DNA of 64,000 nt from a virus (IMGVR_UViG_3300009868_000002:1-64000); one strand, 5' to 3'. Positions 37,310-61,825 are shown, counted from the stretch's first letter. The notes: generated by a model not told the origin, from the sequence alone. Made by a program: numbers and translations.

Positions 37310-37759
37310 ATGAAAAGCAAACTTATGCGTAAATGCTGCAAGGGAGGATACCTGCAGCAGGGAGGCCCTCTGGAGGCTAAATACACTCAAGTAGGCAGTG
37401 CAGCAGGTTCCGTCCTGGGTACTGCCTTAACTGCTTTAGGGGTGCCGGGGCTTGGTGGTATCTTTTCAGCGTTAGGCTCTGTGATAGGCAAGAAGATTGG
37501 TGAGCCGAAAGACTTGCAGAATCGGCTCAACGAGTTGACGGTAAATAAAAATCCCTATGGCTTCGCACTGGGTGGTGCTCTCTCCGGCATGGAAGATGCC
37601 GCCGTCTATAAAGGGAGACTTCATAACAAGGGAGGCATTATGGTAAACGCTAAGGGAGTGCCTTCCAATAAGCCTGATGCAGAAGTCGAAGGAGGAGAAG
37701 TAAAAGTAACGCTTGGTGGGAAGGAATATATTTTCAGTAATAGATTAATTATAAAATGA
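37310..37759 (+). CDS. Virion cargo protein, N-terminal part (probably split)
   Basis: Gly-rich TM segment, H..GG, AEVEGGEV...YIFSNRL. Confidence 0.65.
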   Translation: MKSKLMRKCCKGGYLQQGGPLEAKYTQVGSAAGSVLGTALTALGVPGLGGIFSALGSVIGKKIGEPKDLQNRLNELTVNKNPYGFALGGALSGMEDAAVYKGRLHNKGGIMVNAKGVPSNKPDAEVEGGEVKVTLGGKEYIFSNRLIIK

Positions 37760-42826: not shown

Positions 42827-45800
42827 ATGGCTAAAGTAACCAGACCAATCGCTAATCTCAATCCTATTACAGGACAGCCTATACTTCCCCCTGCTGATGC
42901 AGGATATAAGTTTGGACAAGTGCAGGCAGGAGGAGGCTTTGCACCTTGGAGTGATATAGACTTATCGGAGTTCAGGCGGCTGGTTCCTATTCCAGTACTC
43001 ACTGGAGATGAAGCTGTTGACTACGCACGGCTAACTGAAGAGAGGGCGCAAAATCAGTCTACCTTTGAGCAATATCGCAATGGCGTAATAAAGTGGGCTG
43101 GTAAGACGGCAACAGCACTCATTGGTGGCTTAGCGACTGTCCCTTATACTATCGGTGTAGCAGGACTGCAGCTTGCCGACATCGCTATCCCCGGCAACGT
43201 GGTAAAGTGGAGCGACATCTATAACAACGCTTTTCAGCGCTCTTTGGATAGTGCTAACCAGTGGATGGACAAAAACCTGCCTAACTACTATACCAAGGCA
43301 CAGCAGGAGATGGGACTGGGTAGGCAGATGCTTACTGCCAACTTCTGGGCTAACGATTTCCTCGGTGGCATGTCATTCATGACGGGTGCTATCTTGAGTG
43401 AGATTACGGCATCCTATCTTACAGCACTTACCTTTGGTGCTGCTGCTCCTGCGCAGATGATGATAACGCAGGGTATCCTGGCACGTACCGCCAAGCTAAT
43501 GAAGATGCTGCAGCGTACTGCTCCCATCGACGACGTCATCAAGGGATATGCAGCACTTGGTAAGTCGGGAGCAGCATTTCAGAATATACAAGGACTGCGC
43601 AGCATCATTACGGGTGCCGGATATGAAGCGGGCGTCGAAGCACGCCACTTTATCGATGAAGCAGAACGTGATATGATTAGCAGCTTTGTCGACGCTGAAG
43701 GCAGGGAGCCTACAGCAGAAGAGCATGCTTCGATGATGGATAGGATAACCAGGCAGGCTAATGGCGTCTTCGCTACCAACCTGGGACTGGTAGGTGCCTC
43801 TAATGCCGCGATTTTTACCAAGACATTTGCTCCCCTACGCAACATGATTGGCAAGGCGCTGCGTATGGGCCCTGCTCCTATAGCGGGTGGCGTGCTCTCT
43901 CCCTTCGTCAAGGAAGGAGAGAAGCTGGCAGCACGGGAGATAGGGAATTGGGAGAAAGCATTGGTATCTGCCTATAAGCTCGCCAAGAAGCCCTTCATCG
44001 AAGGTGTATGGGAAGAAGGTTTGCAGGGCGTAACAAGCTCGGCAGCAGTGGATTACGTCATGAAGAAGTACAGCCATGATGGTGGTGATGCTACTTACTC
44101 TATGGCAGAAGCTATTACCAAGGGATTTGAGCAGGCTTACGGCACCAAGGAAGGACAAAAGGAAGTGCTCATTGGTGCTATCATGGGGTTGATAGGCAGT
44201 CCTATTACCCGATTTGAAGGCAGCTCCATCAAAGATGTAGTAAACTACCTACGTCAGGGCGATGCCAACAAAGCATTCGCTGAACGCTATAATAACGTAC
44301 AGACGCTACCGACGATACAAGCAGCCGTGAAGTCTACCATTCGTGGCCATGAGCTGAATCAGGAAATGGATTACGCCATTGACAGGGATGACTTCTTCAA
44401 AGCCAAGAACGCTGAAGATGATGGTATCTTTAACCTGCTGCAGATGCGCTACGATTCAGGCTATCTCGACCAGGTTGTTGACGACTTCGACGACGCTGTA
44501 AGAGATTACTTGGCCAATAGCGAAGAAGACGGCTACAAGAAGATGGCGGCAGACTTTGGCTTCGACCCCAGCACGTCGGTAACGGAGATGAAGGATAGGC
44601 TCAAAGAGGTGAGGGCAGGGCTGGAGATGAAGGTAGAGGCTTTCCGCAAAGCCAAGCAGAACGCCAAGGATGCTCTTATCCGCCCTGATGCCGACTTGGA
44701 AGAAGGGCTGACATATACGCTATATAACATCGGCAGAAAGAGCGAAAGGGAAAAAGAGGTAGCCAGTGAGATACAGCGCATAGTAGGTGATGTCGATACC
44801 AGAGAGTTGGAAGATATACGTAACTCCAACTTGTCGATATTGTTCTCCCGTAACTGGAAGAAGACGTTTGAGAGTGAGCGTGGCAATCTTCTCGACGAGA
44901 TGGATACTATGGAGAAGGACTTGGCAGAAGCACGCCAGAATTACGATAAAGCGCAAAAGAAGTTTGAAGATAAGATAAAGAGACTAGGAAAGCGGCGTAC
45001 TCCCAAGACAGCAAAGGAGATAGAAGATATCAACAAGCTGCCAGAAGAGCAGCGTGAGCTATTGCGCTATCAGGAAACAGGTTATACACAGGAGCTGCTG
45101 GATATCGAGTCTTCTATTACTAAGCTAGAAGATAATATCGAGAAGCAGCGTAAGAAAATCGCCGCCAAAGTAGCTAAGGAATACCAGGACCGCAACAATA
45201 CGTCTATTCCCTACGACATGGATTCTGTGGAATTTGAGAATCTCGTCGACAGGGCACTAGCGCTGCGTAAGAAGCTGGAAGTACACTACAAAAGCAATCC
45301 TGTAAATAAGAAGAAGCTAAAGCTCCTATTCGACGACTTGCATAGGCTTTCTGCTTATCGTCAGCGCCAGATTATGGAATATAACATGCTGGTTAGCCAG
45401 CCAGGTGCCGAAAACTTTCTGGAGAACGTCGCTGAGTTACGCTCTCTTATCGAGCAGGAGATTAATAGTGGTGCAGAAGCACAGCTAAAGAGAGCCGATA
45501 AGCTGTTTGCTAACAAGGCACGCGTCAAGAAGCTTATCGCCAGATACTATAGCGACGTAAGCCCTGAAACCAAAGATGCGCTGCTGGAGACATTCAAAAG
45601 CTATGTCCCTACCGCCGATGAGATGGCGGTGGAAGCAGCAACAAGACAAGGCCCTGATGCACTCAATGCCCTCATCGAAGGTGCTACGAAGGTATCGGCA
45701 GGGCATCAGTATGTAAGCAACCTATTTCGTACGATGCCCCAGTGGATGCGTGCTGGTAACGCCGCCATGCAGGCAGAGAAGCAGGCAGCAGAGCAAGCAG

Positions 45801-48800
45801 TCCAGCAACAGCAGGAAGAACCTAAAGAAGAAGGTGGCATTCCTGTGCCTCCTGGCAGCTTTAAGAAGCAAGAAGGTGCAGCACCTATATCCCCGTCGAC
45901 GACTACCGAAGGGGCAGTGAAACCGCCTGCAGGATTTACAGCACCAGGAGCTGCCAAGTCTTTTGTTGCAGAAGTAACAGAAGGGGAAAAGCCGCCAGAG
46001 GGATTTACCGCTGCTCCACCTACTGCTCCCCCTGCTGGATTTACAGCACCTACAGCGACGCCGCCACCTAAAGGATTTACAGCAGGAGAGCCAGAGACTA
46101 AGGGAGGTAGGCAAGTAGCGGTAACTAACCCCAATGAGCTGCTATGGATATGGAATGACTATCCCGAAGCACGCAATCAGGAATTATGGGAAGAATCTTT
46201 CGATGAAGCTACAGGCAGAGGTATACGCGAGTACCCCGATGCCACCAAGAAGGCGATGCGGGCATATACCGCCAAGCCAAAGGCATCGAATCTACAGCTA
46301 CGTATCGAAGAGTGGAATCCTGCTGCAGAGAATCTGGAGCCCGAAGTACGCATTACCGACGATGTGGTGATGATGCGTACTTATCTGCGTGGTGGCAAGC
46401 ATTGGAGAGCACGTCTCTTTGTGCGGGAAGATGCTAACGATGAATGGCATGAGGTGGGCAGCTTGCTCAACCCCAAGCGCTATGTCAATAACGATGGAGT
46501 GCCTTTCGACTTGACGGACCCCGAGCAGCGCTCCACCCTTAATCCTGCCTTTAAAGAAGGCGAGCAGGGTGAGAAGCTTTCTACGATGTATGAGAAGCTG
46601 ACGAAGGAAGAATCGCTATGGAGCTGGATAGACAGCCAGATTGATAAAGGAGGCGCCACTGTTACGGGGACTCCCTTGCAGGTGGTATTTGGCAAGTCCG
46701 ATGTGCACGTGAAGATGTTTAACTTCAGCATCAACCACGGTGGTACCGTGATGCGCTGGCAGGAAAAGCACGGTGGACAGTCTATTGAAGAGAAGTTTCC
46801 CCCCGATATCTATGGACGTGAAGTTACCATCAAGGGTAAGAAAACCAAGGCGATAATCTATATCGACAAGAAGACGAATACCGCTACCGGAGAGACTAAA
46901 TTTAACTACACTTTCCTGCATTACGACGAGGACGGCAACAGGATGTATAGCGAACCAACGCCGGAGCAGTCACAGGAAATCTACGCTGAAGATAAGGCAT
47001 TACGAGAGAATAAGCAGAATAAGGCTTACCGTGTGCAGGATAAGATTATACTGTTTGAATACGATGGCCACAAAGAATGGAGTGGTGTCATGAATCCTCC
47101 TGTTGATGCAGAGGCTGTTAAAGCTGTAGATGCAGAGTTGGAGCGCATCTTCACCAAAGATGAAGAGGGACTATACCCCCATCAGCGGGAAGAGGAATTC
47201 GAGGAAGGCAAGGGACGACAGGTAGCGCTGCTTCCCAAGGATGAAGACAGGTATATTTCGGTGCTGGCGTATGATAATGCCAGTGGTAAGGGCAACCTGC
47301 TCAAGGGCATACATATCAGCCTACAGATGTGGGTGAATAAGCTCAAGAATGCCGATGCTTCCAAGCTGCTGGGAGGTCCTACTTCCTACTTCAACGTAGA
47401 GTTAGGCATCGAGATGAATGATACCTGGGTGAACTTCATCGTCAGCCGTACAGAAGACGGTGTTTTCTACATGGAGCCCAAGGATAGCAGGGGCGTAAAG
47501 TATCGTACCTACATCGGCCCTAACATAACGATGGAAGGCATCCTCAATGCGCTCCATACAGAAGAGTATATGAAGAGTGCTCCTACCAAGTCGAAGATTG
47601 CCAACTACCTGGAAGGCAAAGCAAAAGCTTGGGGAGTACCTGGATTTTACATCAAAGGCACTGGATACAGACAGGGCAACCAGCAAGGCAGGTCAGTCGC
47701 AGCATTCGATGCACTAGCGCTGATGTCTCCCAATCCTTCTGCTTTTCTGGATATGGACTTGAAAGAAGAAGAGGAGATAGGTGCTGTGCAGGAATTTCTG
47801 GAAGGACAGGAGCAGAAAGAAGCTGAGGAAGAAAAGAAAGAAGAGGTACCTGCAAAAACAGAAGCTCCTGCAACAAAAGGATTTACAGTAAACCTGCAAT
47901 CTACCCGTGGCGAGGATGATGATGTTCCCTTCAAGATTGTCCCTAACGTTTCCGACAAGGAGCTTACTACCTTCGATGAGGCTAAAGCTAATATACAGTC
48001 TATCCTCAATATCGACGTCAAGGATATAGATACCGTCGTCGGCAACATCGCTAACAAGGGCATCACGGTAGGCGCCTTTATGTCGAACGTCGTCTACCTA
48101 TCCAAGAAAGCATTACCCAAAGGTACAGAGTGGCATGAAGCTTTTCACGTCGTCTTCCGTACCTTCCTTAGCAACTCACAGATTAGCCACTACCTGGGAT
48201 TGGCAAGAGAGCGCTATACGCTGCCCAGCAAGGAAGCATTAGAGAAATTCAGGGAGCAGGCTGCCAACCGTAAAGACTTGACGGCTAAGCAGCTGGAAGA
48301 CTTGTGGCTGGAGGAGAAGATGGCCGATGACTTTGCAGACTTTCAGGCACACCCTGCCAGCTATACCAGGACGAAGAAACACAATAATGCTTTCGTCAGG
48401 CTATGGAATGAGCTGCTGAAATGGTTAGGGCTCTATAGCGAGCATGCCGACGAGATTGAAGCGCTCTTTAGCGACATCAGCATTGGCAAGTTCCGTACGG
48501 CTACTCCCGTGTATAACATCTTCAGGCTCCGCAAAGAGGCGGCATGGCTCAACTATCCTACTATCGAGATAGCGGAGAACGATATCCTTCCTGTCTTCGA
48601 CGCCAAGACGGTTAGTAGCGACGTACACATGCTTGCTGCATTGGTGTACAGGCAGCTGACAGCACAGGGCATTGACGGATTTAATAAGTACCACATCTCT
48701 GCCATTCTGGATACCATGCGCGACAGGTTCAACCCCGAGCGCTGGGATAAGAGGCTTGGTGGTGCTGTCGATGTAGCAGAGGCAGACAGGAATGCACTAT

Positions 48801-51316
48801 ATCAGAGGCTGATAGGTATACATAACGCCATCAGCCATCCGGGGCAGACGATATTTGCGCTGGATAACAATGGAGGCTTTGGCGCCATCAACTTTGAAGG
48901 CAACAGCCCTGAAAGCATAGCGGCTTATGATAAGCGCTGGCAGAAGACATACGATGCCAACCTGGAAGAGATATTGAAAGACATCAAGCTGATGAGTGTC
49001 ATCTATCAGCAGGATGAAGTGCTGGCAGAGGATGCCAACCAGGCTGACTATGAAGAGAGTGAAGAAGATTCTCTCCCCGGCAATGAAAAGAAGGGAGACA
49101 GATATGGGGGATTATCCTCTACATCAAAAGCTTTCAGGCAGTACATCCTTACCACCTATGGAGAGATGGACTACTTCGAGCTGGGCATAGGTGAAGATAT
49201 ACTCAAAGCTGACGCCAACAAGGAGTTGTTTCTATTCCCTGCCAACCCTGGTATACTGTATAACGGTATCTTGGCGGCACTGCGCGATACTCCTATTCAG
49301 GAAGTGATGTCCCGCTTTGTGGTATGGAGCAGGGACAACAAGAATAGTAGGCTGCTGGCAGAGCGTCTGTTTAGCGACATCAAGGCAGAGCTCAAGCAGA
49401 ATGGGATTGCTGTAAGGGACATCGAAGACTATCTGGCAAATGTCGCCAACGTAGCAACGCTAATACGCAATAGCAATACATTCAACCTCTTCATCAACAA
49501 CTTCACCAAGCATAGCAGGGAGTACCTGGACTTGATACTTGACCCCACGAAGACACATACCCTCATCAGTCCTATGCACGCTAACCAGCAGGATAGCGAC
49601 GCCATGCAGGTAAACAGGTGGCGTGCCAAGATGGCGAGGGCCTATGAGAAAGCACCGGCAGGTACTCCTTTCTTTGGGCAGAACAACGTATTGCACGGTG
49701 TGCTGCAGGACATCCAAGCCAAGTTTGAATTCTTTAGCGGCAAGAATGTCGACAAGACGGTGAGGGAGATAAAGGCGTTATTTGACAGCATCGGTATAGA
49801 GGTGGCACCGGGGTATATACGCTATAGCCTGTATCGCAATAAAGCCAACGAGTTTGAAGCTTTGGACCCCAACGATGAAACGGCAGATAGCGACTTCATC
49901 AAGTTTGGCAGGACGTATGATAGTATCAACGAGCCTACCATCGCTGAAGAGCTGGGGGGATTGACAGAAGTGGCGCGTGGCGGTACCGTGCAGGTGGTAG
50001 GGGATTTCTTCACCAGCGAAAAGGGAGCGCTTAGCAGGCTGATGAAGCTGGCACGTACCAATACGCTGTTCGACGAGACGCTCTTCCGTACCAGCATACA
50101 AAACTCCAATGGCGAGAGGGTATTTCCTATATCGTCGCCGTCATTTGTCTCTACGATGTCGCTGCTGCTGCGTGACAGGAGAAGGAGAGCTTTCGTTGAC
50201 GCTATGCGGGTGCTGGCAGCGAATCCTACTAAAGCTAACGACAAGAAAGCATACCAGGCATTTACCGATAGCATGGGAAGTGAATTAGGATTGGAGCCCT
50301 ACTTTGCACGGCGCTACTTCGACAACATTAAGAATAACCCGCTGCTGCTGGGGCTGACGAATGACGGCAGCTATGATAACCGCATCAGCGAAGTATTCCT
50401 TAACTACTTCATCGACTATAACTTGTTTGGTGTAAGGCTGGACTTCTTGGAAGAAGTCGAAGAGACGGGTGAGGTAGTCAGGGAGACATGGAAGCAGGGA
50501 TATAGGGAGGGCGCCGACTACTCCGACTTGGATGCTTTCAGTAAGCTTGTCGCCAAGATGTCGTTTTATATTGATAGCACAGGTACTATTAACAGGGCTG
50601 CTTCGGAAGCTATCGAAAGCAAGAAGGAAGTGCTAGTGCCTTTCCGCGTCGTCGTTCCGGCGGTGTTGGAAGCCAAAAAGACGGCTAATGCTTTTGCTGT
50701 GCCAGTGCTTAAGTACACCAGAACCGATAAGGAGAAAGGCTTGGTGCTATCAGATATAGGCAAGAAAGTATTTAAAGCACACCTACAGCGGGAAGTGGAT
50801 AATCTCAACAAGACAAAAGCGGAGATTGCCGCCATCATCAAGGGCGACAAGATAGAGAATATCGTCGAGAAGTACCACTACATTCCTTATAACGATAGCA
50901 AGTATACGTATCAGGACGGCACTTTCTACGAGATTGTGCCAAAGTTTATACGCGATGAATATGGTGCTCCCGTCATGGACAGCATGCAAGTTACCGTCGT
51001 CACGGATAGCAAATTGATTGAAGATTTGCAGAAGGAACTTCCCAAGCTACGGGGGCTGCGCTTATTCGATATGCGCATACTTCCTAATGCCGACGAGATA
51101 GAAAAGGCAGGCGTCATACCGAAAGACATCGACGACGTAATAGACAGCCACATGCAGTCGGAATTTCATAAATTTGTACAGCTATTGCGTGTCAAGCACC
51201 GTGCTGTTGTTTCCGACTTGCACGGAAAGAAGGGACAGGAGCTATTAGCGATACTAAACCAGCAGCAGGCATTCAAAGATGCCTGGGCTAAAATAAGCAG
51301 ATTACCATGCAAATGA
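42827..51316 (+). CDS. Giant cargo protein with TM segments, coiled coil, zincin-like domain and probable N-terminal part of the virion RNA polymerase
   Basis: 2829 aa; N-terminal hydrophobic helices; WHEAFH (HExxH at 48134-48148) plus LEEKMADDF; precedes the catalytic RNAP gene. Confidence 0.75.
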   Translation: MAKVTRPIANLNPITGQPILPPADAGYKFGQVQAGGGFAPWSDIDLSEFRRLVPIPVLTGDEAVDYARLTEERAQNQSTFEQYRNGVIKWAGKTATALIGGLATVPYTIGVAGLQLADIAIPGNVVKWSDIYNNAFQRSLDSANQWMDKNLPNYYTKAQQEMGLGRQMLTANFWANDFLGGMSFMTGAILSEITASYLTALTFGAAAPAQMMITQGILARTAKLMKMLQRTAPIDDVIKGYAALGKSGAAFQNIQGLRSIITGAGYEAGVEARHFIDEAERDMISSFVDAEGREPTAEEHASMMDRITRQANGVFATNLGLVGASNAAIFTKTFAPLRNMIGKALRMGPAPIAGGVLSPFVKEGEKLAAREIGNWEKALVSAYKLAKKPFIEGVWEEGLQGVTSSAAVDYVMKKYSHDGGDATYSMAEAITKGFEQAYGTKEGQKEVLIGAIMGLIGSPITRFEGSSIKDVVNYLRQGDANKAFAERYNNVQTLPTIQAAVKSTIRGHELNQEMDYAIDRDDFFKAKNAEDDGIFNLLQMRYDSGYLDQVVDDFDDAVRDYLANSEEDGYKKMAADFGFDPSTSVTEMKDRLKEVRAGLEMKVEAFRKAKQNAKDALIRPDADLEEGLTYTLYNIGRKSEREKEVASEIQRIVGDVDTRELEDIRNSNLSILFSRNWKKTFESERGNLLDEMDTMEKDLAEARQNYDKAQKKFEDKIKRLGKRRTPKTAKEIEDINKLPEEQRELLRYQETGYTQELLDIESSITKLEDNIEKQRKKIAAKVAKEYQDRNNTSIPYDMDSVEFENLVDRALALRKKLEVHYKSNPVNKKKLKLLFDDLHRLSAYRQRQIMEYNMLVSQPGAENFLENVAELRSLIEQEINSGAEAQLKRADKLFANKARVKKLIARYYSDVSPETKDALLETFKSYVPTADEMAVEAATRQGPDALNALIEGATKVSAGHQYVSNLFRTMPQWMRAGNAAMQAEKQAAEQAVQQQQEEPKEEGGIPVPPGSFKKQEGAAPISPSTTTEGAVKPPAGFTAPGAAKSFVAEVTEGEKPPEGFTAAPPTAPPAGFTAPTATPPPKGFTAGEPETKGGRQVAVTNPNELLWIWNDYPEARNQELWEESFDEATGRGIREYPDATKKAMRAYTAKPKASNLQLRIEEWNPAAENLEPEVRITDDVVMMRTYLRGGKHWRARLFVREDANDEWHEVGSLLNPKRYVNNDGVPFDLTDPEQRSTLNPAFKEGEQGEKLSTMYEKLTKEESLWSWIDSQIDKGGATVTGTPLQVVFGKSDVHVKMFNFSINHGGTVMRWQEKHGGQSIEEKFPPDIYGREVTIKGKKTKAIIYIDKKTNTATGETKFNYTFLHYDEDGNRMYSEPTPEQSQEIYAEDKALRENKQNKAYRVQDKIILFEYDGHKEWSGVMNPPVDAEAVKAVDAELERIFTKDEEGLYPHQREEEFEEGKGRQVALLPKDEDRYISVLAYDNASGKGNLLKGIHISLQMWVNKLKNADASKLLGGPTSYFNVELGIEMNDTWVNFIVSRTEDGVFYMEPKDSRGVKYRTYIGPNITMEGILNALHTEEYMKSAPTKSKIANYLEGKAKAWGVPGFYIKGTGYRQGNQQGRSVAAFDALALMSPNPSAFLDMDLKEEEEIGAVQEFLEGQEQKEAEEEKKEEVPAKTEAPATKGFTVNLQSTRGEDDDVPFKIVPNVSDKELTTFDEAKANIQSILNIDVKDIDTVVGNIANKGITVGAFMSNVVYLSKKALPKGTEWHEAFHVVFRTFLSNSQISHYLGLARERYTLPSKEALEKFREQAANRKDLTAKQLEDLWLEEKMADDFADFQAHPASYTRTKKHNNAFVRLWNELLKWLGLYSEHADEIEALFSDISIGKFRTATPVYNIFRLRKEAAWLNYPTIEIAENDILPVFDAKTVSSDVHMLAALVYRQLTAQGIDGFNKYHISAILDTMRDRFNPERWDKRLGGAVDVAEADRNALYQRLIGIHNAISHPGQTIFALDNNGGFGAINFEGNSPESIAAYDKRWQKTYDANLEEILKDIKLMSVIYQQDEVLAEDANQADYEESEEDSLPGNEKKGDRYGGLSSTSKAFRQYILTTYGEMDYFELGIGEDILKADANKELFLFPANPGILYNGILAALRDTPIQEVMSRFVVWSRDNKNSRLLAERLFSDIKAELKQNGIAVRDIEDYLANVANVATLIRNSNTFNLFINNFTKHSREYLDLILDPTKTHTLISPMHANQQDSDAMQVNRWRAKMARAYEKAPAGTPFFGQNNVLHGVLQDIQAKFEFFSGKNVDKTVREIKALFDSIGIEVAPGYIRYSLYRNKANEFEALDPNDETADSDFIKFGRTYDSINEPTIAEELGGLTEVARGGTVQVVGDFFTSEKGALSRLMKLARTNTLFDETLFRTSIQNSNGERVFPISSPSFVSTMSLLLRDRRRRAFVDAMRVLAANPTKANDKKAYQAFTDSMGSELGLEPYFARRYFDNIKNNPLLLGLTNDGSYDNRISEVFLNYFIDYNLFGVRLDFLEEVEETGEVVRETWKQGYREGADYSDLDAFSKLVAKMSFYIDSTGTINRAASEAIESKKEVLVPFRVVVPAVLEAKKTANAFAVPVLKYTRTDKEKGLVLSDIGKKVFKAHLQREVDNLNKTKAEIAAIIKGDKIENIVEKYHYIPYNDSKYTYQDGTFYEIVPKFIRDEYGAPVMDSMQVTVVTDSKLIEDLQKELPKLRGLRLFDMRILPNADEIEKAGVIPKDIDDVIDSHMQSEFHKFVQLLRVKHRAVVSDLHGKKGQELLAILNQQQAFKDAWAKISRLPCK

Positions 51317-51804
51317 TTTCCAACGAGATGATAGCCTTGCTGAATTACCGCATTCAGCAGGAAGAGTTAAGCAGCCGCCTCTATTGGGCGATGAGCCAGT
51401 GGCTTGACAAGGTAGGCTACATAGGTGCTGCCAAGCTATGGGCCAAGTACAGCAAGGAAGAAACAGAGCATGCGCATTGGGCGTATGAATTCCTGCAGGA
51501 CTTGGATATTCTTCCACTGACGCCTGCCCTGGAAGAGCCTCCGCAGTTGTTTGAGGGGCTCTCTGGTGTCATCGAAGCGACGGTGCTACATGAAGAAGAG
51601 GTGACGAGACAGTGTGAGGAGCTGGCACGTGCAGCGATGGCGGAAGGAAGCTTCCTGGTATACACGCTGGCACATAAATACGTTGCCGAGCAGAGAGAAG
51701 AGTTAAAAAAATCTTACCTGCTGAAGGACAGGCTGGAAGAGTTTGGCAATGACTCTGTTAACATGAGGCTCTTCGATAAGGAATTAGGCGAGATGGCCGG
51801 ATAA
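51307..51804 (+). CDS. ftnA: Non-heme ferritin
   Basis: LN..I..E..SS..Y.AM..W, EETEHA, HEEEVT, EQREE ferroxidase-centre pattern; 165 aa. Confidence 0.9.
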   Translation: MQMISNEMIALLNYRIQQEELSSRLYWAMSQWLDKVGYIGAAKLWAKYSKEETEHAHWAYEFLQDLDILPLTPALEEPPQLFEGLSGVIEATVLHEEEVTRQCEELARAAMAEGSFLVYTLAHKYVAEQREELKKSYLLKDRLEEFGNDSVNMRLFDKELGEMAG

Positions 51805-51813
51805 AAATATGCT

Positions 51814-54800
51814 ATGGCTTGTACTTTCAAATATAATTCTCCCCTTGGCAAGGAAGTGAGCTTCACTGCTGACACCCGTGAGGAGTTGCGTAACCAGCTT
51901 GTCCGCTATATCATGCTCAATGAAGCGGAAGTATATGGAGAGCTGAAAAATAACATCCTTCCCTATAAGGCAGGCAGTGAAACCAACTTCGTCGATGCCG
52001 ATAACGACATTAGCAAGGAAGCGCTTTTTAGCTTTTTCGCCAACGACTTCCTCTCATCGATGTCGCTGATGAACCTGCTGTATGGCGATGCACGGATGAT
52101 GCATGAAGACTTCAAGGATGCTACCAAGCGTAATGGCAACCTGATATCTGCTGGTAGCCAGACGGGTGTAGGTATGACGACGGTAGCTGTCATTGCCGAC
52201 AAGAAGATAGATTTGGCGGAGAGAAATAGCCTGATAAAAACCAACAATACAAAGACGAAGTACGAGCCACAGGATGGCCAGAGCTACACCAGCGTACACT
52301 GGTATATGGATAAGTATTTGCCTAGCCTTGCACGCTATAGCAAACCCGTAAAGGATGCCTTCATGAAGATTCGTGCAGGCATTCCACTGACTAGTAAAGA
52401 AACCAGCCTGTTGAAAGTACAGCATGCCAGCTTCATCGACAGGAAGATGGTAGGCAAGTCTCTCTTCCAGCTGCTGAAGACTTCCACGCACCTGCAAACC
52501 AGGGAGAAAACCAGCTACATAGACTACCAGGGAAGGAATAAGGAAGAAGTACATAAAAAGCTGCTTGGACTATGGAGGCAGTATGATAATGCTGCCAACG
52601 AAATCGAGCAGCGCAAAGTCCTGAAGGAGATACATAGTTACTACAAGCCCCAACGCCATCGCCAGTACCACCACCAGATGCTCAACGACATGGAGATGCG
52701 CTCTACGCATTGGGTGGCTATGGGTACTGCATCAAAGACGGTATCTACCGATGTAGGCAGGTACAATGAAGCAGAAGGTTTCTTCGAGCTGACGCCACAC
52801 CTGATGCCAGACACGGGTATTCTGGAGCAGGTAAAGACGGACAACCTGAAGAGCGAAATCATTCACGGCACACAGCTGCAGGGCTTGGTATGGAGTGAGC
52901 AGGCTGGTGATGAGCAGAAAGTAGAAACCCCTTCAGGGATAAAGACTACCGTCGGTGAGCTGCGTAAAGTATATGCACAGCTGCTTGCCGAGCGTACTAT
53001 CAGGGGCTTGAATGCCAAGCGCAGTGAGCTCTTTACGGAAGAGGGAGAAGTAAACTACGAATTGATACACTCCCGCATCATTAGCGGTATGCAGTCCAGC
53101 TCTCCTGATACACAGTTATTGGAGCTGTTATCATTAGACGATAAGGGCAAGCCCAAGTACAACTGGAACCTTCCCGTGCTGCACAAGAAGCTGCAGAACT
53201 TGCTGCTCAACTACTTAAGCAAAGATTCCCTCAAGCACGTCGTCGAAGGGCAGAAGTACACATTGGTATCGGCGGTAGGACATGAGGTGCTGTTCGATAA
53301 GAAGACGGGAAGGGTAGTACCTACGTCGGAGTACCTGCGCAATCCCAGCAAGTATGAAGGTGATGCTTATGGCACCAGGGACTTGCAGTTTGGCAGGCTG
53401 GAGAATGGAGTGTACTATAGTGAGGCCATCGTGCCGCAGCGGGTGCTTGACAAGTTTGGCATCAAGGTAGGACAGGAGATTGCCGTCAATGGCAGGATGC
53501 TTGCACAGATGGGGGTACGTATCCCTACACAGGATAAGCATTCCATGGTAGTGCTGAAGATTGTCGACTCGCTACCGGAGCTGTATGAGAATAGCGTCAT
53601 ACTACCTTACGAGGTAGTATTCCTGTCGGGTGCTGACTTCGACATTGACAGCTTATTTGCCAGGAACTTCTATAGCTATAAAATTGATAAGAAGGCATAC
53701 TTCTTTGGGCAGTATCATACTGCAGAGAATCCTGTAGAGCAGGCATATAAGGAATGGCAGCATAGCAAGGAAGTAGAGAGGCTCTATAGCAAAGAAATCG
53801 CTGAATGGGAAGATAGCGATAACCACCTACAAGATTTACTGCAACGGTTAGCACGTTTCCAAGTAGCCGGAGAAGTGGCTGTTAGCGTGGAGGGTGAAGA
53901 CTATAAAGGGCTTACTAAGGTACTCGATGAATTGTATGAAGACGGATTGAAGGAAGCAATCGCAGAGCAGCGTAGCAAAATACGTGAGGTAGTTTCTTCG
54001 CAGAAGATGTCTTTGAAGGAGTTTAGCAAGCAGCATGGCAAGCAGATACTGGTCAACGTAGCAGCTTATGAAAAAGGGAGCTTAAGCAAGGTTAAGGCTA
54101 TCACTAATGAAGAGCTTAACAACTTGCTACTGGAAGCAGAGATAGGGATGTCGTTTAATGAAGGTAATGCCGCTAACGCTACTACGAAGGCATCGCTGGA
54201 AGCATTTGAGAAAGCAGGAGAGCTATTCAAGCAATGGGGCATACTCACTGCCGATGAAGTGACGGGGCTGTATAATGCCATGGATAAGTTGCTAGCACAG
54301 CAGTCCAACGATACGGGCAAGAAGAATATCGGCCCTGGTGCACTGCACAACATTATGTTTCAGCTACTGGCAGAGCGCAAGACGCAACTTATAAAAGAGG
54401 TACGCACAAAGGCAGCAGCGAATCACGCAATGAAGTATGCCATGCCTGCAGCAGACAACCTTACTGGAGCAGCTACTACTACATTAGAGTTGGCTGAGCA
54501 GGGACTTCGTACAGCAACAACAAGAAGCTTTCCTTTAGGTAAAATAGGTGATATTATTACTTTTGAAGGAAGGCCGACAAAGTATATTATTACAGGAATC
54601 GAAACCTTAACAAAAGAAAATACGTCTAATCCAGAGTGGATAAAGCAGTGGAGCCAAAAAGAGCAATGGACAGAAAAGCACTTTAAGGAAATTCTGGGAG
54701 GGAAAACAGTACACATAGGGAGTGTTCAAACATCATTTAGGATAGCTACAGAAGAAGAACTGCTACAAAGGAGTGACGAGGCTTACTTTGGCAAATACAC

Positions 54801-57462
54801 AGAGTATGGCAGCTTCACCAACAGCAAACGTGAGCGTATCAATGACTTGATTTCTACTGTCATCTCTGGTATGACGGATAACGCCAAGCACCTATTTGCT
54901 GCACGCTTTGAGCTTACCTTTGAGCAGGTAGGCCCCTTCATGCACATGATAAGCATGGGGATGCCGTTCACTGAAGCACTGTTACTAGTACGACAGCCTA
55001 TCCTGACTATCTACCAGGATATTCTGGAAGACAAGAAGAGGCTAGTGAAGAAGCGCGGCGTACTGGAGAAGGAGACTATCCAGGGTATCAAGCTGGATAA
55101 GATAGCGCAGGAAGCGGCACGCAGGCTTTATGAGAACCTGTTTGGTGACAAGATAGAAATCAGAGAACCAGGCGAAGAAGAAGGTGTTGAAGAAGAAGCA
55201 ACTGCTATCGGATTTGATGAAGCTCTTGTCAAGCCACAGCCTTTTGAAGTAGGGGAAGATAGCCTGATGAAGATGGCGATACAGTACCAGAGTGGTGCTG
55301 TTCCTAATCCTGAAGAGTACTTCGCCAAGCAGGTATACCTGCTTAATGACTACAAACGTATCGTCGATGATAGCAAGTCACTGATGGCCTTCTCGCAAGT
55401 GCTGCAGCTAATCAAAGGATTCAAGACGACGTTTGCAGAGTCCCGCATGGTAACGCAAGCATTGGAGAATCTAGGGCTGGAGCCTCACTTTGCCAAGCTG
55501 AAGGAAGAAGACGCCAAGAAAGTAAAGGATGAAGTAAGCATCATGACGCTAAAGGACGGTACGTTAGTGGCTACCTTTGTCGATAAGTCTACTCCCGGCA
55601 GTCCTGCAATGAAGTTTTCGCTACGCCCTACCGCTAAGCTGGCAGAGTCCCCTGAAGACTTTACCGCTATATCTGAAGGGATACGCGACGTCCTCACTAC
55701 CAACGAAACTGTCTTTGCCCGTATTGCTACAGACCAGATACTACACCGTGATAGCGCACAGATAGTGATTCGTGAAACAGATACCTATACAGACTTGGTG
55801 AAGGAAGTTAATAGCGCTGTAAACCAATTCTACCTGCTCAACAAGGAAGGCATGGAGAAGGTAGAGACAGCGTTGATTACTTTCCTCAATATGCGTGCTT
55901 TTGCTCATTTAAATAAGCAAGCAAAGATAGGGATTAGCGATAAGGATAATGCCCTGCGCCTTATGGCGATGTTTAAGCTGATGCCCAATAACGATAGCGT
56001 ATTGCGCTATATCTTCGACAGGCTGCGCACTATAAAGGAGTTTAAGGCAAACAAGTTTCTCAACTTCATCCGCATGGATGACGTCGAGATAACGGGTAAG
56101 TTCAACCCCTTAGCCAACCTGGTGATGGGTAAGATTGTCGGAGATACACGCAGTGAATATACGCCCGAATACAGGCAGGACGTCGCTAATGACTTGATAG
56201 CACTGGGCAGAGCAGGACAGAAATATGGAAACTTATTTGAAGACGAGAATGCGCTAAACGACTTGCCGGAAGCAATACGGCAGCTGACACCACGGCAGCT
56301 CGCCAAGCTAGCCTACGACATGGCGATACACTATAGTATGCTGGTTGATAATATGCAGTATCGCAATAACGGCATCGCCAAGCTTATTAACCCTGTAGCG
56401 TGGAAGCCTGTAGCGGAAGCGCTAAGTGCTGTACAGCATGTGTTCAACAACAAGCCGGAGCCTTTTGTCTATCGCGGTACAGAGATGAAGCTGCGCAGCT
56501 TTGAAGACTTGTTTGGTTTATCCCGGGATGAGCTCATCGTAGAGTTTATGACGCTGTATTCCCGCAATGTCGCCAACTCCGCTGAAGTACGCTACATCAA
56601 TGCACCCAAGATGAAGGTGGTGGTGAATAAAGCTGCTGATGGAGAGGTAGTAACTTTCAGTGGGCAGCCTTCGATTTCTACGCTGAAGGTTAACCTCAAC
56701 AGGATTAAGGAAGGGCAGTGGGGTGATACTATTAGTAGGCTAGCTACTTTTGGTTTTGAACCTCGCGGTGAAGGGCTACTCCGCATACCACAGGTAGTAA
56801 AGGTAGGTGCCAAGAGAAGCCCTACACGCTTGATGCATCTGAAGAAGCTGTGGTGGCATGAGGGAGGGGAGGATGGCAAGACGTATGTATATGAAAGAGA
56901 GCCTTATCCTGGCGTCGCCGAAGGAGATGTGACGCTGCACCAAGTGGTACGATATGAATATCGCCGTGCTACAGAAAAGGAAAAAGGAGGTAGGATAGAA
57001 TCTACCAAGCAAGTGGTAAGAAACTTTCCACTGGTAGGCAGGGGTGCTGAATACGAATTGAGTGAATGGATAATTCCCAAGGGAGTGGTAGGGCTAGCGC
57101 TGCCTCTGTACTTGGCAGAGTACACTGCTGCCTATGTACGGCAGCTTACCAAGAGTCCACAGAGAGGTGCCAAGAAAGAAGAAAAAGAAGAAAAAGAAGG
57201 TGTACCACGAGGGTTTACTGCTGCTGCAGTGACAGCACGGGATTTCTACAATGCCTTAGCTAAAGAATATGGAGTAGCAGATGTTGACGGCATGGAGTAC
57301 TTCACTAATCCTGAAGTCGCTAAGCGGGTAGAAGGATACGAAAAAGAGTATGGCAGGAAATTCAAAGTAGTAGCTAAAGAGATTAATAACAAGACGTATT
57401 ACCGCGTCGACATGGTTATTCCCAGCATCGACAAAGTAACTAAAAGATTAGAATGTGGCTAG
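51814..57462 (+). CDS. Virion RNA polymerase catalytic subunit (two-barrel, crAss-like)
   Basis: D..KR, DGQSY, KTS, RIPTQDKHSM, GADFDID (53629-53649), TDNAK. Confidence 0.92.
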   Translation: MACTFKYNSPLGKEVSFTADTREELRNQLVRYIMLNEAEVYGELKNNILPYKAGSETNFVDADNDISKEALFSFFANDFLSSMSLMNLLYGDARMMHEDFKDATKRNGNLISAGSQTGVGMTTVAVIADKKIDLAERNSLIKTNNTKTKYEPQDGQSYTSVHWYMDKYLPSLARYSKPVKDAFMKIRAGIPLTSKETSLLKVQHASFIDRKMVGKSLFQLLKTSTHLQTREKTSYIDYQGRNKEEVHKKLLGLWRQYDNAANEIEQRKVLKEIHSYYKPQRHRQYHHQMLNDMEMRSTHWVAMGTASKTVSTDVGRYNEAEGFFELTPHLMPDTGILEQVKTDNLKSEIIHGTQLQGLVWSEQAGDEQKVETPSGIKTTVGELRKVYAQLLAERTIRGLNAKRSELFTEEGEVNYELIHSRIISGMQSSSPDTQLLELLSLDDKGKPKYNWNLPVLHKKLQNLLLNYLSKDSLKHVVEGQKYTLVSAVGHEVLFDKKTGRVVPTSEYLRNPSKYEGDAYGTRDLQFGRLENGVYYSEAIVPQRVLDKFGIKVGQEIAVNGRMLAQMGVRIPTQDKHSMVVLKIVDSLPELYENSVILPYEVVFLSGADFDIDSLFARNFYSYKIDKKAYFFGQYHTAENPVEQAYKEWQHSKEVERLYSKEIAEWEDSDNHLQDLLQRLARFQVAGEVAVSVEGEDYKGLTKVLDELYEDGLKEAIAEQRSKIREVVSSQKMSLKEFSKQHGKQILVNVAAYEKGSLSKVKAITNEELNNLLLEAEIGMSFNEGNAANATTKASLEAFEKAGELFKQWGILTADEVTGLYNAMDKLLAQQSNDTGKKNIGPGALHNIMFQLLAERKTQLIKEVRTKAAANHAMKYAMPAADNLTGAATTTLELAEQGLRTATTRSFPLGKIGDIITFEGRPTKYIITGIETLTKENTSNPEWIKQWSQKEQWTEKHFKEILGGKTVHIGSVQTSFRIATEEELLQRSDEAYFGKYTEYGSFTNSKRERINDLISTVISGMTDNAKHLFAARFELTFEQVGPFMHMISMGMPFTEALLLVRQPILTIYQDILEDKKRLVKKRGVLEKETIQGIKLDKIAQEAARRLYENLFGDKIEIREPGEEEGVEEEATAIGFDEALVKPQPFEVGEDSLMKMAIQYQSGAVPNPEEYFAKQVYLLNDYKRIVDDSKSLMAFSQVLQLIKGFKTTFAESRMVTQALENLGLEPHFAKLKEEDAKKVKDEVSIMTLKDGTLVATFVDKSTPGSPAMKFSLRPTAKLAESPEDFTAISEGIRDVLTTNETVFARIATDQILHRDSAQIVIRETDTYTDLVKEVNSAVNQFYLLNKEGMEKVETALITFLNMRAFAHLNKQAKIGISDKDNALRLMAMFKLMPNNDSVLRYIFDRLRTIKEFKANKFLNFIRMDDVEITGKFNPLANLVMGKIVGDTRSEYTPEYRQDVANDLIALGRAGQKYGNLFEDENALNDLPEAIRQLTPRQLAKLAYDMAIHYSMLVDNMQYRNNGIAKLINPVAWKPVAEALSAVQHVFNNKPEPFVYRGTEMKLRSFEDLFGLSRDELIVEFMTLYSRNVANSAEVRYINAPKMKVVVNKAADGEVVTFSGQPSISTLKVNLNRIKEGQWGDTISRLATFGFEPRGEGLLRIPQVVKVGAKRSPTRLMHLKKLWWHEGGEDGKTYVYEREPYPGVAEGDVTLHQVVRYEYRRATEKEKGGRIESTKQVVRNFPLVGRGAEYELSEWIIPKGVVGLALPLYLAEYTAAYVRQLTKSPQRGAKKEEKEEKEGVPRGFTAAAVTARDFYNALAKEYGVADVDGMEYFTNPEVAKRVEGYEKEYGRKFKVVAKEINNKTYYRVDMVIPSIDKVTKRLECG

Positions 57463-60400
57463 TTGCACCATAACACGGAATCAGCACGATGAAATCGTCA
57501 GCGTAAAAGCTGCTAACGGTAACGACAGTAAGCTCTTCGCCGACATACTGGCACACGAGAAAGTCCAGGGCGATAAGGAATTGGCTGTACAGATATATAA
57601 AAGTATCTATACCGAAGAGTTTGAGAAAGCTACCAGGGAGACTATCGCCAAGGAGAAGGTGACTACCGCCGAAACAAAGGATGCCAACGCTGAATATAAG
57701 CTGGACTGGCTGGAGAAGCACGCCCTCTTCTTTGTCCCCAAGAGTGCTGAATTGCGTCATGGCGTATACCAGTCGCAGATGGAAGGCAAGACGAAAGATG
57801 CCAAGGATGCCGCTGAGAGGCTGCTACTGATGAATGACGCCGTCACCAAGCCTGTAAATAAGAACGACAAGTATATCGTCGAAGGTAAGGAGCTAAACCG
57901 TGTTACCGAAGAGCTGAAGAAGGATGAATTCTTTGGCTATCGCGGCATCGACGAAGAAGAAACAGAAGAAGATATACTGCGTCAGGCATGGGGTAATACC
58001 GTCGATAAGATTCTCAATGCCGTTGTTGCAGGGGAGGATGTTACGCTGGATAAAGACGACAAAATCACACAGGAAGTATTCGACTACCTGAAGAAGTACT
58101 TCTCTGACTTGATAGCTAAATACCCTGGGCATATCTTTCTTTCGCAGATGTCGCTATTCAATGTCAGCAAAAACATAGCGGGTACCGCTGACGTCGTGAT
58201 GATAAACCCTGAAGGCGAATTGCGCTTTATAGACTTGAAGACAAGTCTGTATCCATTCACGGAAGGCTATAAGACGGATGCAGGATTTGATGCACATTAT
58301 AACAAAAGAGTTACCCATAAGGAAGGCGACAAGAAAGTAGTCACCGCCAGCCGCAAGGACAGGCACTCGGCACAGGTAGGTACCTATGCCGCTATGGCGG
58401 AAGCTATGGGATTCAAGCTTGCCGAGAAGCCTATACTAATCCTTCCCTTTCAGATTACAAAGGTAGATGGCGACAAGATAGCGAGAGTGAAGCATGATAC
58501 CTATGGTGAGGATGACTTCATTGAGGGGGAGTACTTCCAGACGATACAGGCACGCTATAACAAGGATACCAGGCTGGAAGGTGCTACTCATGCTATCACT
58601 CGTGCGCTGAAGATACTAAAGGAACACGCTATGCTGGCTAGGCAGCGTGGTAAGCCATCGGGACGTATCGAAGCAATCATCAAGGAGATTGACGAAAGCG
58701 TCGATGCAGAGGCAGCGATAAAGTTTATCGACAATGCCTATACTACCTTTGTAGCTAACATCGCCAAGCAATACAACAAGGAAGTCGACACACTAAAAAA
58801 AGCTACTCCCGAGCAGTATGGCGATGCAATCGTCACCTTCCTCAACTTTCTGGATGACACCAGAAAGATGATGGACATCTACCATGGTAAAGACTCTATC
58901 CTAAAGAGTATCAATAAGCTATATCGCAACATCAAGGATATAGACCCCGGCTACAGACCCGAAGCAGGCTCACCGCTGGATAAGATAGAGACTACCATTC
59001 GCGTCATCGACGACTTACGTACCGATATCGACGACATCCTTCCCGGCATTATGGCGCGGATACTGGCCAAGCAGGTACACTTGGGAAGCATTGAAGCAAT
59101 GAAAGCCAAGGAGCAGCATCTGATAAAGAAAGTCAATGCTTCGCCTAAAGACTCCCGCAATCGTGTCAAGCATGAGAGAGAGCTTGCCGAGCATAGAGAG
59201 AAATTCCATATCTCCGAGAGTGGCGACCCCGACATGATTGCGAAGATTGAGCAGGAGATAAAGCAGGGAGGGTATAAGGATATAGGCGCTATGGACAGGT
59301 GGTTTAGCCCTGCTGTAAGCATGGATAACAGCTTTCTGGCGACGTTTGTGCTGACGCTAAAGGAAGCTTTCGAGAAAGCCAAGGCACTGGCACGGGACTT
59401 TATGTACCAGGCACATGAAGCTTTTGAGGAATATGCCAAAGTGGCTGGTGCTAGCAGGGATAACCCTAACCAGTTTAATGCTGGCCTCTTCAAGAAGCGC
59501 AACATGTTTCTGGATAAGGATACTACTAAAGAAGTGCTAAGCTTTGTAGCCCCCCTAGACTATGGCCGCTTTGAAGCCGAGCGCACTAAGATGTTCAAGG
59601 AAGCGGAGAAGATTAAGGACAGGAATGCGAAGAATAAGTTTGTCGCCGACTGGTACGCCGCTAATACGCAGCTACGCCCTCTGGAGCACGTCGAAGGAGT
59701 GACGACGTATAACGGCGTCAAGCTGCTGGATTCTGTCAGGGATGTTGCTGCACGCATGAAAAAGAATTGGGGTGAGGACTTGACAAATAAGTATATTTCG
59801 GAGCACGTCACCTTTACCAACGGTAAGATGACGTCGGCAGACTGGACATCGGGGATGCTGATACCCAGCATAAGTAAGTACGCCGATAGCGACTTTGCTG
59901 CACTGCGCACTAATGCCGCCAAGTTTAAGTTCTACCTGTTCCTGATGAATAGCTACCTGCGCTCACAGTCGCGGCTACCGGCACGCAAGAGTGAGTCACA
60001 TCGATTTCTGGTGCCCTTCGTGAAGAAGTCGGGAGGAGACAGACTGCGCGAAGGTAAATTCTGGGATGCTTTCAAGAATAGGTTCTGGGATGAGGCTATG
60101 CTGCGCATCGATGAAGACTATCAGACGGAGGGGCTGGAAGATACCAAAACCATTCCTATCCTCTTCTATAACGATGGACATACCATGGATGCTGCCGATG
60201 TGAGCACCGACTTGATGGCAAGCATCCTGAAATTCGAGATTGCCAGCTTACGCTATGAGCAGCAAAGCAGGCATAGCAGCCTTGCCGACAACTTGCTGCT
60301 TAGCGTTAAGCAAACGGAGCCTGCTGCAACAGACAGCGCTGGCTGGCGTATCTTAAGTAAGGCGGCGAAGGCAGTAGGCATTACCGAAGGGATGGAGAAA

Positions 60401-61825
60401 TACGTGAAGAAACACGGCAGCAATCAGGTTGCCGCCATGCTGGAAGCATTTATCGACGTTACCATCTATGGGCAGCGCCGCAAAGACCCCACCTTTAAGA
60501 TAGGCAGCCGAGTGGTGGACTTGGGTAAGGTTGCTGACAGCATCATTAGCTTTAGTAGCAAAACGCAGATTGCCGCCGACTGGACGCTGGCATTAGCCAA
60601 CTCCTTGCAGGCACGGGTAAACCAACAAATAGAAGCAGCAGCACGTCAGTATTATAATGGCAGAGACTGGATAAAGGCAGAAGTGGAATACGATAAGCAC
60701 CTGGGGGCAATGGTTGGCGACAGACTTAATCCCGTCACCAAGTCACTCATGGGGCAGCTGATAGACTTATATGAGCCTATCCAGGGCACCTTCACCGATG
60801 AGTTTGGACATCGACTAAGCAAGAGCAAGTTTAAGGCACGGATGAATAGCAGCTTGCTATACTTCGGCATGAAGTCGGGGGAGCATCATGCACAGGTAAA
60901 GAGCATGATAGCGATGATGCTAAGCAAGCAGGTGATGCAGAATGGTAAGCCTATTCCGCTATATGAAGCTTATGAGCGCGATGCGTCGGGAAAATTAAAG
61001 CTTAGGGAGGGTGTTGAAATGACGGAGCTGGTGGATAGGGCATTACAGAATAGGCTCCATGCCGTCAACAAGCGGCTGCATGGTGTATACAATAGCTTTG
61101 ATGGAGTAGAGATAGAGCGGCACTGGTATGGCAGGCTGCTAATCATGTACAAGAAGTGGCTGGCACCGGGACTAAAGAGAAGGTGGAAAGCAGAAGGCTT
61201 TGACTATGAACTAGGAGACTTCACCGAAGGGATGTATTCTACCTTCTTCAAGAAGCTCTTTGGTGAGTTTGGCGAATTCGCCAAGTACGTCACCGGCAAG
61301 GAGCATACCTTTTCGCCGATGGAGATAGCGAATATACGCAGGACGCTGTATGAATTTAGCGTTATCGCTATCACAGGGACGCTGGCTATCATCCTGTCGG
61401 CACTGGGCAGTGGCGCCGATACCGATAAGAAGTGGAAGTACCAATGGCCGCTGTATTTCCTGATGAGGTTGAATGCCGAGATATCGATATATGGAGGCTT
61501 GGGCGACCCTAGCAGCTTATTCCTTCCCAACTTACGGGAAGTGATTAGCCCCTATAGGAGCATTCCTGTGATGACGGTATTGCAGAAAGTTACTAACTTA
61601 TATTCTTCGGCATCGGGGGATGTCATTAATCTGATGCTTGGACAGGATATAAATAGATACCAAAATAATACAGGCATTTTTGACGCTGGCACCAGTAAGA
61701 CATGGGCTAATGCCGTCAAGGTGTGGGGTATTTCCGGCAAGTCGATGGATTCTGACTTGGCGTTAGACATACTACTACTACAGAAAGGTAGCAATGTTGC
61801 TGTAGTAGGTAAGACGAGAGAGTAA
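57455..61825 (+). CDS. Giant cargo protein with PD-(D/E)xK nuclease domain
   Basis: GTG start; IAGTADVV...IDLKTS...HSAQVGTY; helical C-terminus with hydrophobic segment. Confidence 0.75.
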   Translation: MASCTITRNQHDEIVSVKAANGNDSKLFADILAHEKVQGDKELAVQIYKSIYTEEFEKATRETIAKEKVTTAETKDANAEYKLDWLEKHALFFVPKSAELRHGVYQSQMEGKTKDAKDAAERLLLMNDAVTKPVNKNDKYIVEGKELNRVTEELKKDEFFGYRGIDEEETEEDILRQAWGNTVDKILNAVVAGEDVTLDKDDKITQEVFDYLKKYFSDLIAKYPGHIFLSQMSLFNVSKNIAGTADVVMINPEGELRFIDLKTSLYPFTEGYKTDAGFDAHYNKRVTHKEGDKKVVTASRKDRHSAQVGTYAAMAEAMGFKLAEKPILILPFQITKVDGDKIARVKHDTYGEDDFIEGEYFQTIQARYNKDTRLEGATHAITRALKILKEHAMLARQRGKPSGRIEAIIKEIDESVDAEAAIKFIDNAYTTFVANIAKQYNKEVDTLKKATPEQYGDAIVTFLNFLDDTRKMMDIYHGKDSILKSINKLYRNIKDIDPGYRPEAGSPLDKIETTIRVIDDLRTDIDDILPGIMARILAKQVHLGSIEAMKAKEQHLIKKVNASPKDSRNRVKHERELAEHREKFHISESGDPDMIAKIEQEIKQGGYKDIGAMDRWFSPAVSMDNSFLATFVLTLKEAFEKAKALARDFMYQAHEAFEEYAKVAGASRDNPNQFNAGLFKKRNMFLDKDTTKEVLSFVAPLDYGRFEAERTKMFKEAEKIKDRNAKNKFVADWYAANTQLRPLEHVEGVTTYNGVKLLDSVRDVAARMKKNWGEDLTNKYISEHVTFTNGKMTSADWTSGMLIPSISKYADSDFAALRTNAAKFKFYLFLMNSYLRSQSRLPARKSESHRFLVPFVKKSGGDRLREGKFWDAFKNRFWDEAMLRIDEDYQTEGLEDTKTIPILFYNDGHTMDAADVSTDLMASILKFEIASLRYEQQSRHSSLADNLLLSVKQTEPAATDSAGWRILSKAAKAVGITEGMEKYVKKHGSNQVAAMLEAFIDVTIYGQRRKDPTFKIGSRVVDLGKVADSIISFSSKTQIAADWTLALANSLQARVNQQIEAAARQYYNGRDWIKAEVEYDKHLGAMVGDRLNPVTKSLMGQLIDLYEPIQGTFTDEFGHRLSKSKFKARMNSSLLYFGMKSGEHHAQVKSMIAMMLSKQVMQNGKPIPLYEAYERDASGKLKLREGVEMTELVDRALQNRLHAVNKRLHGVYNSFDGVEIERHWYGRLLIMYKKWLAPGLKRRWKAEGFDYELGDFTEGMYSTFFKKLFGEFGEFAKYVTGKEHTFSPMEIANIRRTLYEFSVIAITGTLAIILSALGSGADTDKKWKYQWPLYFLMRLNAEISIYGGLGDPSSLFLPNLREVISPYRSIPVMTVLQKVTNLYSSASGDVINLMLGQDINRYQNNTGIFDAGTSKTWANAVKVWGISGKSMDSDLALDILLLQKGSNVAVVGKTRE

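Follow-up and report, generated by a model that had tools for sequence, protein, structure and literature searches.

Paired terminal cysteines in the split virion RNA-polymerase cargo of Crassvirales point to a head-to-tail disulfide chain

Genes and cysteines of the cargo block

Crassvirales include the most abundant human-gut phages. In this study, we describe a block of giant genes in a 64,000-nucleotide stretch of viral DNA (IMGVR_UViG_3300009868_000002:1-64000, the whole of which is referred to as the window), which is part of a 103.5-kb IMG/VR virus record. Judged by its genes, the block is the virion RNA-polymerase cargo of a Crassvirales phage, comprising a DFDxD polymerase (protein B) together with a gp47-like giant (protein A) and a gp49-like giant (protein C), and the cysteines (Cys) of these three proteins lie at the ends that face one another. 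The genes and codons concerned are as follows, with lengths in amino acids (aa) and positions counted from the first letter of the window.

38672-42825, plus strand: two Cys-free proteins of 459 aa and 924 aa, upstream; candidate cargo outside the putative chain
42827-51316, plus strand: protein A, putative first link; 2829 aa, sole Cys at 2828 (C-terminus SRLPCK)
51308-51310, plus strand: TGC codon of A Cys2828, the penultimate residue
51313-51804, plus strand: ferritin-like gene at the A/B junction, 163 aa from ATG 51313, or 165 aa if read from ATG 51307
51814-57462, plus strand: protein B, the predicted catalytic protein of the virion RNA polymerase and putative middle link; 1882 aa, Cys only at 3 (MACTF) and 1881 (C-terminus KRLECG)
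51820-51822, plus strand: TGT codon of B Cys3
53635-53649, plus strand: DFDID catalytic motif of B, residues 608-612
57454-57456, plus strand: TGT codon of B Cys1881, the penultimate residue
57455-61825, plus strand: protein C, putative last link; 1456 aa, GTG start, sole Cys at 4 (V/M-ASCTI)
57464-57466, plus strand: TGC codon of C Cys4

The identity of B is indicated by a profile of its DFDxD region, which matches the phi14:2 RNA polymerase (PDB 6vr4_A) at 6.5e-114, and by a tblastn match to crAss001 gp50. In BLAST comparisons, A matches crAss001 gp47 (2e-24), phi14:2 g067 (1e-8) and the N-terminal part of fused A+B proteins (residues 67-2768 of L009_5158), and it also belongs with phrog_32390, while C matches crAss001 gp49 (3e-40) and the "RNAP-associated" g065 of phi14:2 (1e-19). 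Mass spectrometry has placed the cargo proteins in the virion for crAss001 (PMC10172136) and phi14:2 (10.1101/2020.03.07.982082) only. A phmmer search of the PDB with the C-terminal 930 aa of A, with B, with C and with a 1552-aa protein of the Leptolyngbya cyanophage Lbo-JY46 gave no meaningful match.

The three proteins together contain four Cys in 6167 residues, each at a junction-facing end, as the first-pass annotation of this DNA had described; its statement that the two upstream proteins are Cys-free also holds. Cys make up 0.95% of the residues in the remaining open reading frames (ORFs) of the window. Given the number of Cys in each protein, the probability that all four fall within the four junction-facing 5-residue zones is about 9e-11, so the pattern in the window is not due to chance. 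The same annotation had placed the Cys at two junctions in gene order, and this is correct for B and C, which adjoin, whereas the ferritin gene comes between A and B. The start of C is restricted to the GTG at 57455 because a stop codon lies at 57449-57451, and the C homologue of the close relative L001 begins with ATG and likewise reads MASC.

Cysteine pairs track gene splits in relatives

Eighty IMG/VR loci, obtained with a profile built on the motif region of the RNA polymerase, collapse to 67 non-redundant lineages; B as a single-sequence query retrieved no related loci, whereas an alignment query did. These 80 loci are the closest to the window and mostly environmental, and the gut families are covered by six annotated genomes together with loci L082-L086.

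The pattern of the window is also present in the close metagenomic relatives L001-L003 and in the homologous proteins of two well-described phages, namely gp47, gp50 and gp49 of crAss001 (PMC10172136) and g067, g066 and g065 of phi14:2 (10.1101/2020.03.07.982082; PDB 6VR4). With GenBank starts, crAss001 has Cys2339 of 2341 in gp47, Cys5 and Cys2404 of 2412 in gp50, and Cys5 in gp49; in phi14:2, the final residue of g067 is Cys (position 1797), g066 has Cys3 and Cys2179 of 2180, and g065 has Cys3. The GenBank-annotated DAC15, cr3_1, cr271_1 and p-crAssphage, as well as the cyanophage Lbo-JY46, obey the same rule. Neither the crAss001 atlas (PMC10172136) nor the phi14:2 polymerase preprint (10.1101/2020.03.07.982082) mentions the terminal cysteines, and our literature search found no paper stating such a rule for crassviruses.

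When only ORFs of at least 600 aa are counted, both Cys are present at 64 of 70 junctions, the last Cys lying 0-4 residues from the C-end and the first Cys of the next protein at 3-8; when small intervening proteins are counted in, the figure for the 67 lineages is 74 of 78. The upstream piece carries its Cys 0-4 residues from the C-terminus (up to 8 in crAss001 gp50) and the downstream piece at positions 3-5. Two of the four misses (L082 and L084) are start-codon miscalls, in which an inner ATG gives MSC or MDC. The frameshifted assemblies L055 and L014, which serve as negative controls, have no proper pairs, while their siblings conform. Internal Cys number 73 in 393,746 residues (0.0185%), compared with 1.1% in 76 control ORFs; of these controls, 2.6% have a Cys at positions 2-8 and 7.9% have one among the last five residues.

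The rule is polar as well as conserved. Complete N-termini of the first protein carry a Cys in 2 of 35 cases and complete C-termini of the last protein in 1 of 55, and in two of these three exceptions, L048 and L007, a cut or small neighbouring ORF has the matching Cys (C-terminus NSCFK and N-terminus MSSC). Cys are therefore found only at ends that face another link. Alignments of the last and first 220 residues from 14 lineages, at 10-20% identity, contain the Cys as their only invariant column, and the same is true of 64 aligned C proteins. The RLxCx ending, which had been noted as common to both C-termini, is indeed present in A and B of the window, but it is a weak motif, since across the 14 lineages nothing except the Cys is invariant. 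The terminal Cys are under strong selection, and they occur as matched pairs of a C-terminus and the N-terminus facing it.

The way in which the chain is divided differs among relatives. Most encode it as two proteins and a few as three or four. In most environmental relatives, A and B are fused (about 4500 aa), most of these fusions having exactly one Cys, at the C-end, and C has exactly one, at position 3-4; in gut lineages, B and C are fused instead, and the junction zone is without Cys. Measured from the DFDxD motif, the splits fall at six or more different positions, each with its own Cys pair:

about -2700: L062, L063 and L048
about -1400 (about 1360-1480 before the motif in cultured phages): crAss001, phi14:2 and p-crAssphage
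-608: the window and L001
+386: L026
about +1100: the common B/C junction
+1785: L034

The window thus differs from crAss001 and phi14:2 in the position of its A/B split, 608 residues before DFDxD as against about 1360-1480, and in the inserted ferritin. The end of A and the start of B in the window align with a contiguous stretch (residues about 2644-2693) of the L007 fusion protein, which is Cys-free there, and the site of the L026 split corresponds to residues 4077-4082 of the L038 fusion protein, again contiguous and Cys-free. Since splits map onto contiguous Cys-free sequence of fused homologues, the Cys pair arises with the split. That pairs should track gene splits and be absent from fusions had been named beforehand as a test, and the outcome is clearly positive in relatives and fused homologues alike: Cys pairs appear with splits and vanish with fusions.

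A probable disulfide chain and its alternatives

We consider it likely that A, B and C are pieces of one otherwise Cys-free giant ejection polyprotein, joined by head-to-tail disulfide clasps. The facing terminal thiols would form inter-chain disulfides in the virion and tie A, B and C covalently, head to tail, into one chain of about 6170 residues. Concatenation would restore the continuity of the unsplit protein, giving 1:1:1 stoichiometry, a fixed order and passage through the tail as a single unit, and once delivered, the pieces would be freed from one another by the reductants of the host cytoplasm. Head-to-tail pairing in the order A, RNA polymerase, C, already put forward in the first-pass annotation, is well supported by the comparison of relatives.

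A bond of the same type has been solved in the cyanopodophage A4 (A-4L), in which cryo-electron microscopy revealed a disulfide between gp27 Cys1715 and gp26 Cys5 in the virion pre-ejectosome (PMC12002296; gp26 is chain A of PDB 9k3a). The likeness extends to gene organization, as gp27 (1717 aa) and gp26 (1114 aa) are encoded by consecutive giant ejection genes and have one Cys each, 2 residues from the C-end and at position 5, respectively, an arrangement kept in Pf-WMP3, Pf-WMP4 and TR020 (Saffermanviridae). By analogy with this bond we infer the disulfide chemistry in the crassvirus; when the bond would form (after lysis, in the proposal of the first-pass annotation) and what part it would play in ejection are inferences too. 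A4 differs in having one junction only and no RNA polymerase, and the A4 paper reports one bond and states no rule tracking gene splits (PMC12002296). That oxidised Cys could exist in crassvirus particles is plausible, because crAss001 virions contain disulfides elsewhere, in the tail and the portal vertex (PMC10172136).

Several points weigh against a disulfide chain. Gut crassviruses inhabit low-oxygen habitats, and searches of the 103.5-kb record detected no thiol oxidase, thioredoxin or glutaredoxin (the Erv1/Alr search was uninformative, as its control also went undetected), so oxidation would be spontaneous or by the host. The Cys counts would also be compatible with other pairings, such as a cyclised B with A joined to C, or homodimers. 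The ORFs in the IMG/VR loci were called mechanically as spans between stop codons, each taken to begin at its first ATG, and their N-terminal positions rest on this naive rule; residual exceptions are L083, with its first Cys at 20, and L054, which has a small protein without a C-end Cys. The crAss proteins have no BLAST match to A4 gp26 or gp27 at E<=0.01, and the hhalign probability is 0.14%; the A4 precedent is thus an analogy and not a family relationship, because no homology to the crAss proteins is detectable. The crAss001 maps (PMC10172136) do not resolve the cargo. A complex prediction that paired the C-terminal 220 aa of B with the N-terminal 220 aa of C scored 0.01, which counts neither for nor against.

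It is possible, though on balance doubtful, that the same bond does another job, acting as a static clasp that locks a folded multi-copy assembly in the capsid, like the pre-ejectosome of A4, rather than joining an unfolded thread. In A4, the one example with a solved structure, folded gp26 receives the C-terminal helix of gp27 in a cleft, and the bond lends stability to a pentameric ring (PMC12002296); the crAss001 cargo proteins are themselves predicted to be folded and alpha-helical (PMC10172136). However, crAss001 capsids showed no ordered assembly of cargo (PMC10172136), the pair recurs at many arbitrary split positions, and the flanks of the Cys are hypervariable while the Cys alone is invariant, a picture more in keeping with flexible tails than with a conserved docking interface. 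The joined product would be either an unfolded thread, as the first-pass annotation proposed, or a clasped folded assembly as in A4.

A different role for the terminal thiols, without head-to-tail pairing, seems quite improbable. They might bridge a metal, tether each protein to another part of the virion (the portal or the capsid), pair up in homodimers, or close B and the small links described below into rings. Sequence alone does not identify the partner of a thiol, proteins with two Cys (B and the links of 142-384 aa) could cyclise, and ferritin genes at the junctions of three lineages could hint at metal chemistry. Yet the Cys are strictly matched at facing ends, absent at outer ends and lost on fusion, as expected of heterotypic pairing and not of anchoring or homodimers; the 14-lineage terminal alignments show no conserved His, Asp or Cys near the terminal Cys that could serve as a co-ligand; and A4 shows a heterotypic pair of a C-terminal and an N-terminal Cys.

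A trivial cause, namely chance or a nucleotide constraint from start/stop overlap and translational coupling, has a negligible probability and is already refuted by the comparative sequence data: the Cys codon of A in the window does overlap a possible start codon (ATG 51307) and that of B the GTG start of C, but, apart from the statistics given above, the N-terminal Cys lie outside these overlaps (as the first-pass annotation had argued), the A gene of crAss001 and DAC15 is on the strand opposite B and C and its product still ends in LRCNS or KECLE, the rule persists with partner genes 7-1700 nucleotides apart or separated by other genes, the Cys alone is invariant at 10-20% identity, and the artefactual splits of L055 and L014 lack proper pairs. 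Three further candidates were rejected: a split intein, for which the 0-4 residues past the Cys leave no room; CaaX prenylation or a lipobox, given the variable Cys offset, the lack of a signal peptide and the pairing logic; and neutral tolerance of Cys at chain ends, given their presence at nearly 100% of inner ends and near-total absence from outer ends.

The probable disulfide chain invites comparison with the virion RNA polymerase and ejection proteins (gp71-73 in DEV) of the N4-like phages (Schitoviridae), which also eject a giant RNA polymerase. In the homologues of DEV gp71, Cys account for 0.00075% of residues compared with 0.865% of the proteome, and the polymerase is thought to cross the tail either in unfolded form or like beads on a string (PMC11445570, PMC13434306). 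The crAss cargo shares the giant ejected RNA polymerase and the strong suppression of Cys, whereas the N4-like protein is a single uninterrupted chain (about 3500 aa) that lacks terminal Cys and has an unrelated RNA polymerase fold. By stitching separate chains together, the crAss system would gain the continuity of the Cys-free N4 polymerase. In its most far-reaching and tentative form, the proposal is that the RNA-polymerase module may be one disulfide-stitched heteropolymer of about 6000-9000 residues, which evolution could cut almost anywhere (for example, by insertion of a ferritin or homing-endonuclease gene) because a single Cys pair would restore its continuity. It would be threaded through the tail as one molecule and cut by the reducing cytoplasm of the host, a redox switch releasing, and perhaps activating, the polymerase inside the cell; the same trick would have arisen independently in cyanopodophages.

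The packing, stoichiometry and tail passage of the very large crassvirus cargo are an open question (PMC10172136, PMC13434306), for which a conserved end-to-end tether would provide a molecular handle. Such a tether would connect the crAss arrangement of three separate proteins with the single chain of the N4 polymerase, would explain the tolerance of repeated gene splitting and insertions, and predicts that crassvirus infectivity is sensitive to reductants.

Small proteins, inserted genes and domains of the cargo block

Apparent gaps between the giants in ten relatives hold small ORFs, nine of which encode proteins of 142-384 aa with a first Cys at position 3-5 and a second one 1-2 residues before the C-end. 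In eight of these proteins there are no Cys besides this pair, the exception being L040. Recognised after the fact, these proteins look like extra chain links on the basis of their Cys positions; a Pfam scan of seven of them (all but those of L027 and L043) found nothing. Their coordinates are as follows.

L012 11311-12348: small two-Cys protein
L015 11362-11958: small two-Cys protein
L021 13952-14380: small two-Cys protein
L027 7228-7656: small two-Cys protein
L043 7459-7902: small two-Cys protein
L036 8227-8808: small two-Cys protein
L048 12888-13475: small two-Cys protein
L053 13858-14361: small two-Cys protein
L040 14227-15381: small two-Cys protein

Other genes at the junctions are not links, as the junction ferritins (window, L001 and L010) and GIY-YIG endonucleases (L001 and L012) have internal Cys only.

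Window 51307-51804: ferritin gene, A/B junction
L001 1901-2392: ferritin gene, A/B junction
L010 14150-14638: ferritin gene, B/C junction
Window 37756-38703: GIY-YIG homing-endonuclease gene in the cargo block
L001 2385-3149: GIY-YIG homing-endonuclease gene in the cargo block
L012 12385-12993: GIY-YIG homing-endonuclease gene in the cargo block

The ferritin gene of the window matches PF00210 at 69.8 bits (3e-19), against a cut-off of 24.5, and its product has one internal Cys and no terminal Cys. The three junction ferritins are 37-58% identical to each other, that of L010 being 38% identical to that of the window; the junctions may be a permissive insertion site, or the ferritins may have a functional tie to thiol or iron chemistry. 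The presence of GIY-YIG genes at junctions in L001 and L012 suggests mobile-element insertion as one route to gene splitting.

In L083 (573-2102), B starts with MAC and has no giant partner upstream; a 509-aa ORF lying 1.7 kb upstream does have Cys at its end, but it contains four others. In Lbo-JY46 (L087 2446-4470), a 674-aa protein has a single Cys at 5 (MKKKC), and no neighbour upstream of it has a C-terminal Cys.

Two functional labels of the first-pass annotation need qualifying. The description of the 2829-aa protein as a membrane anchor is unsupported, as A has no 19-mer above a Kyte-Doolittle value of 1.6, that is, no transmembrane-like stretch. The sole hydrophobic stretch above 1.6 in A, B and C is at 61343-61417 of the window (C residues 1297-1321), near the C-terminus of C. 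The description of the 1456-aa protein as a nuclease stands as a lead at the level of motifs:

58172-58249, plus strand: PD-(D/E)XK-like motif of C, NIAGTADVVMINPEGELRFIDLKTSL, residues 240-265; conserved in relatives

The GTAD...IDLK signature is kept in relatives, and about half of the members of the Atlas neighbours of C carry PF12705 (score 0.93), while C has no Pfam match at E<=1, and a Pfam scan of A and C in pieces did not rise above the noise. The upstream proteins of 459 aa and 924 aa have a weak match to crAss_CARG1 (24.4 bits, under the 27-bit cut-off).

Within B, a module of about 120 aa (window 54416-54781, residues 868-989) is 64% identical to L002 8066-8437, whereas B is otherwise 25% identical; it looks like a shuffled insert because its position relative to the DFDxD motif is quite different. 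The B proteins of L002 (17-8494) and L003 (19-5634) contain the Pfam domains Kinase-PolyVal and ART-PolyVal, so the chain may also deliver effector-type "polyvalent protein" modules. Many environmental C proteins (L028-L085) end in [DN]FY[IV]K at the free end of the putative chain, a conserved sequence that is not present in C of the window.

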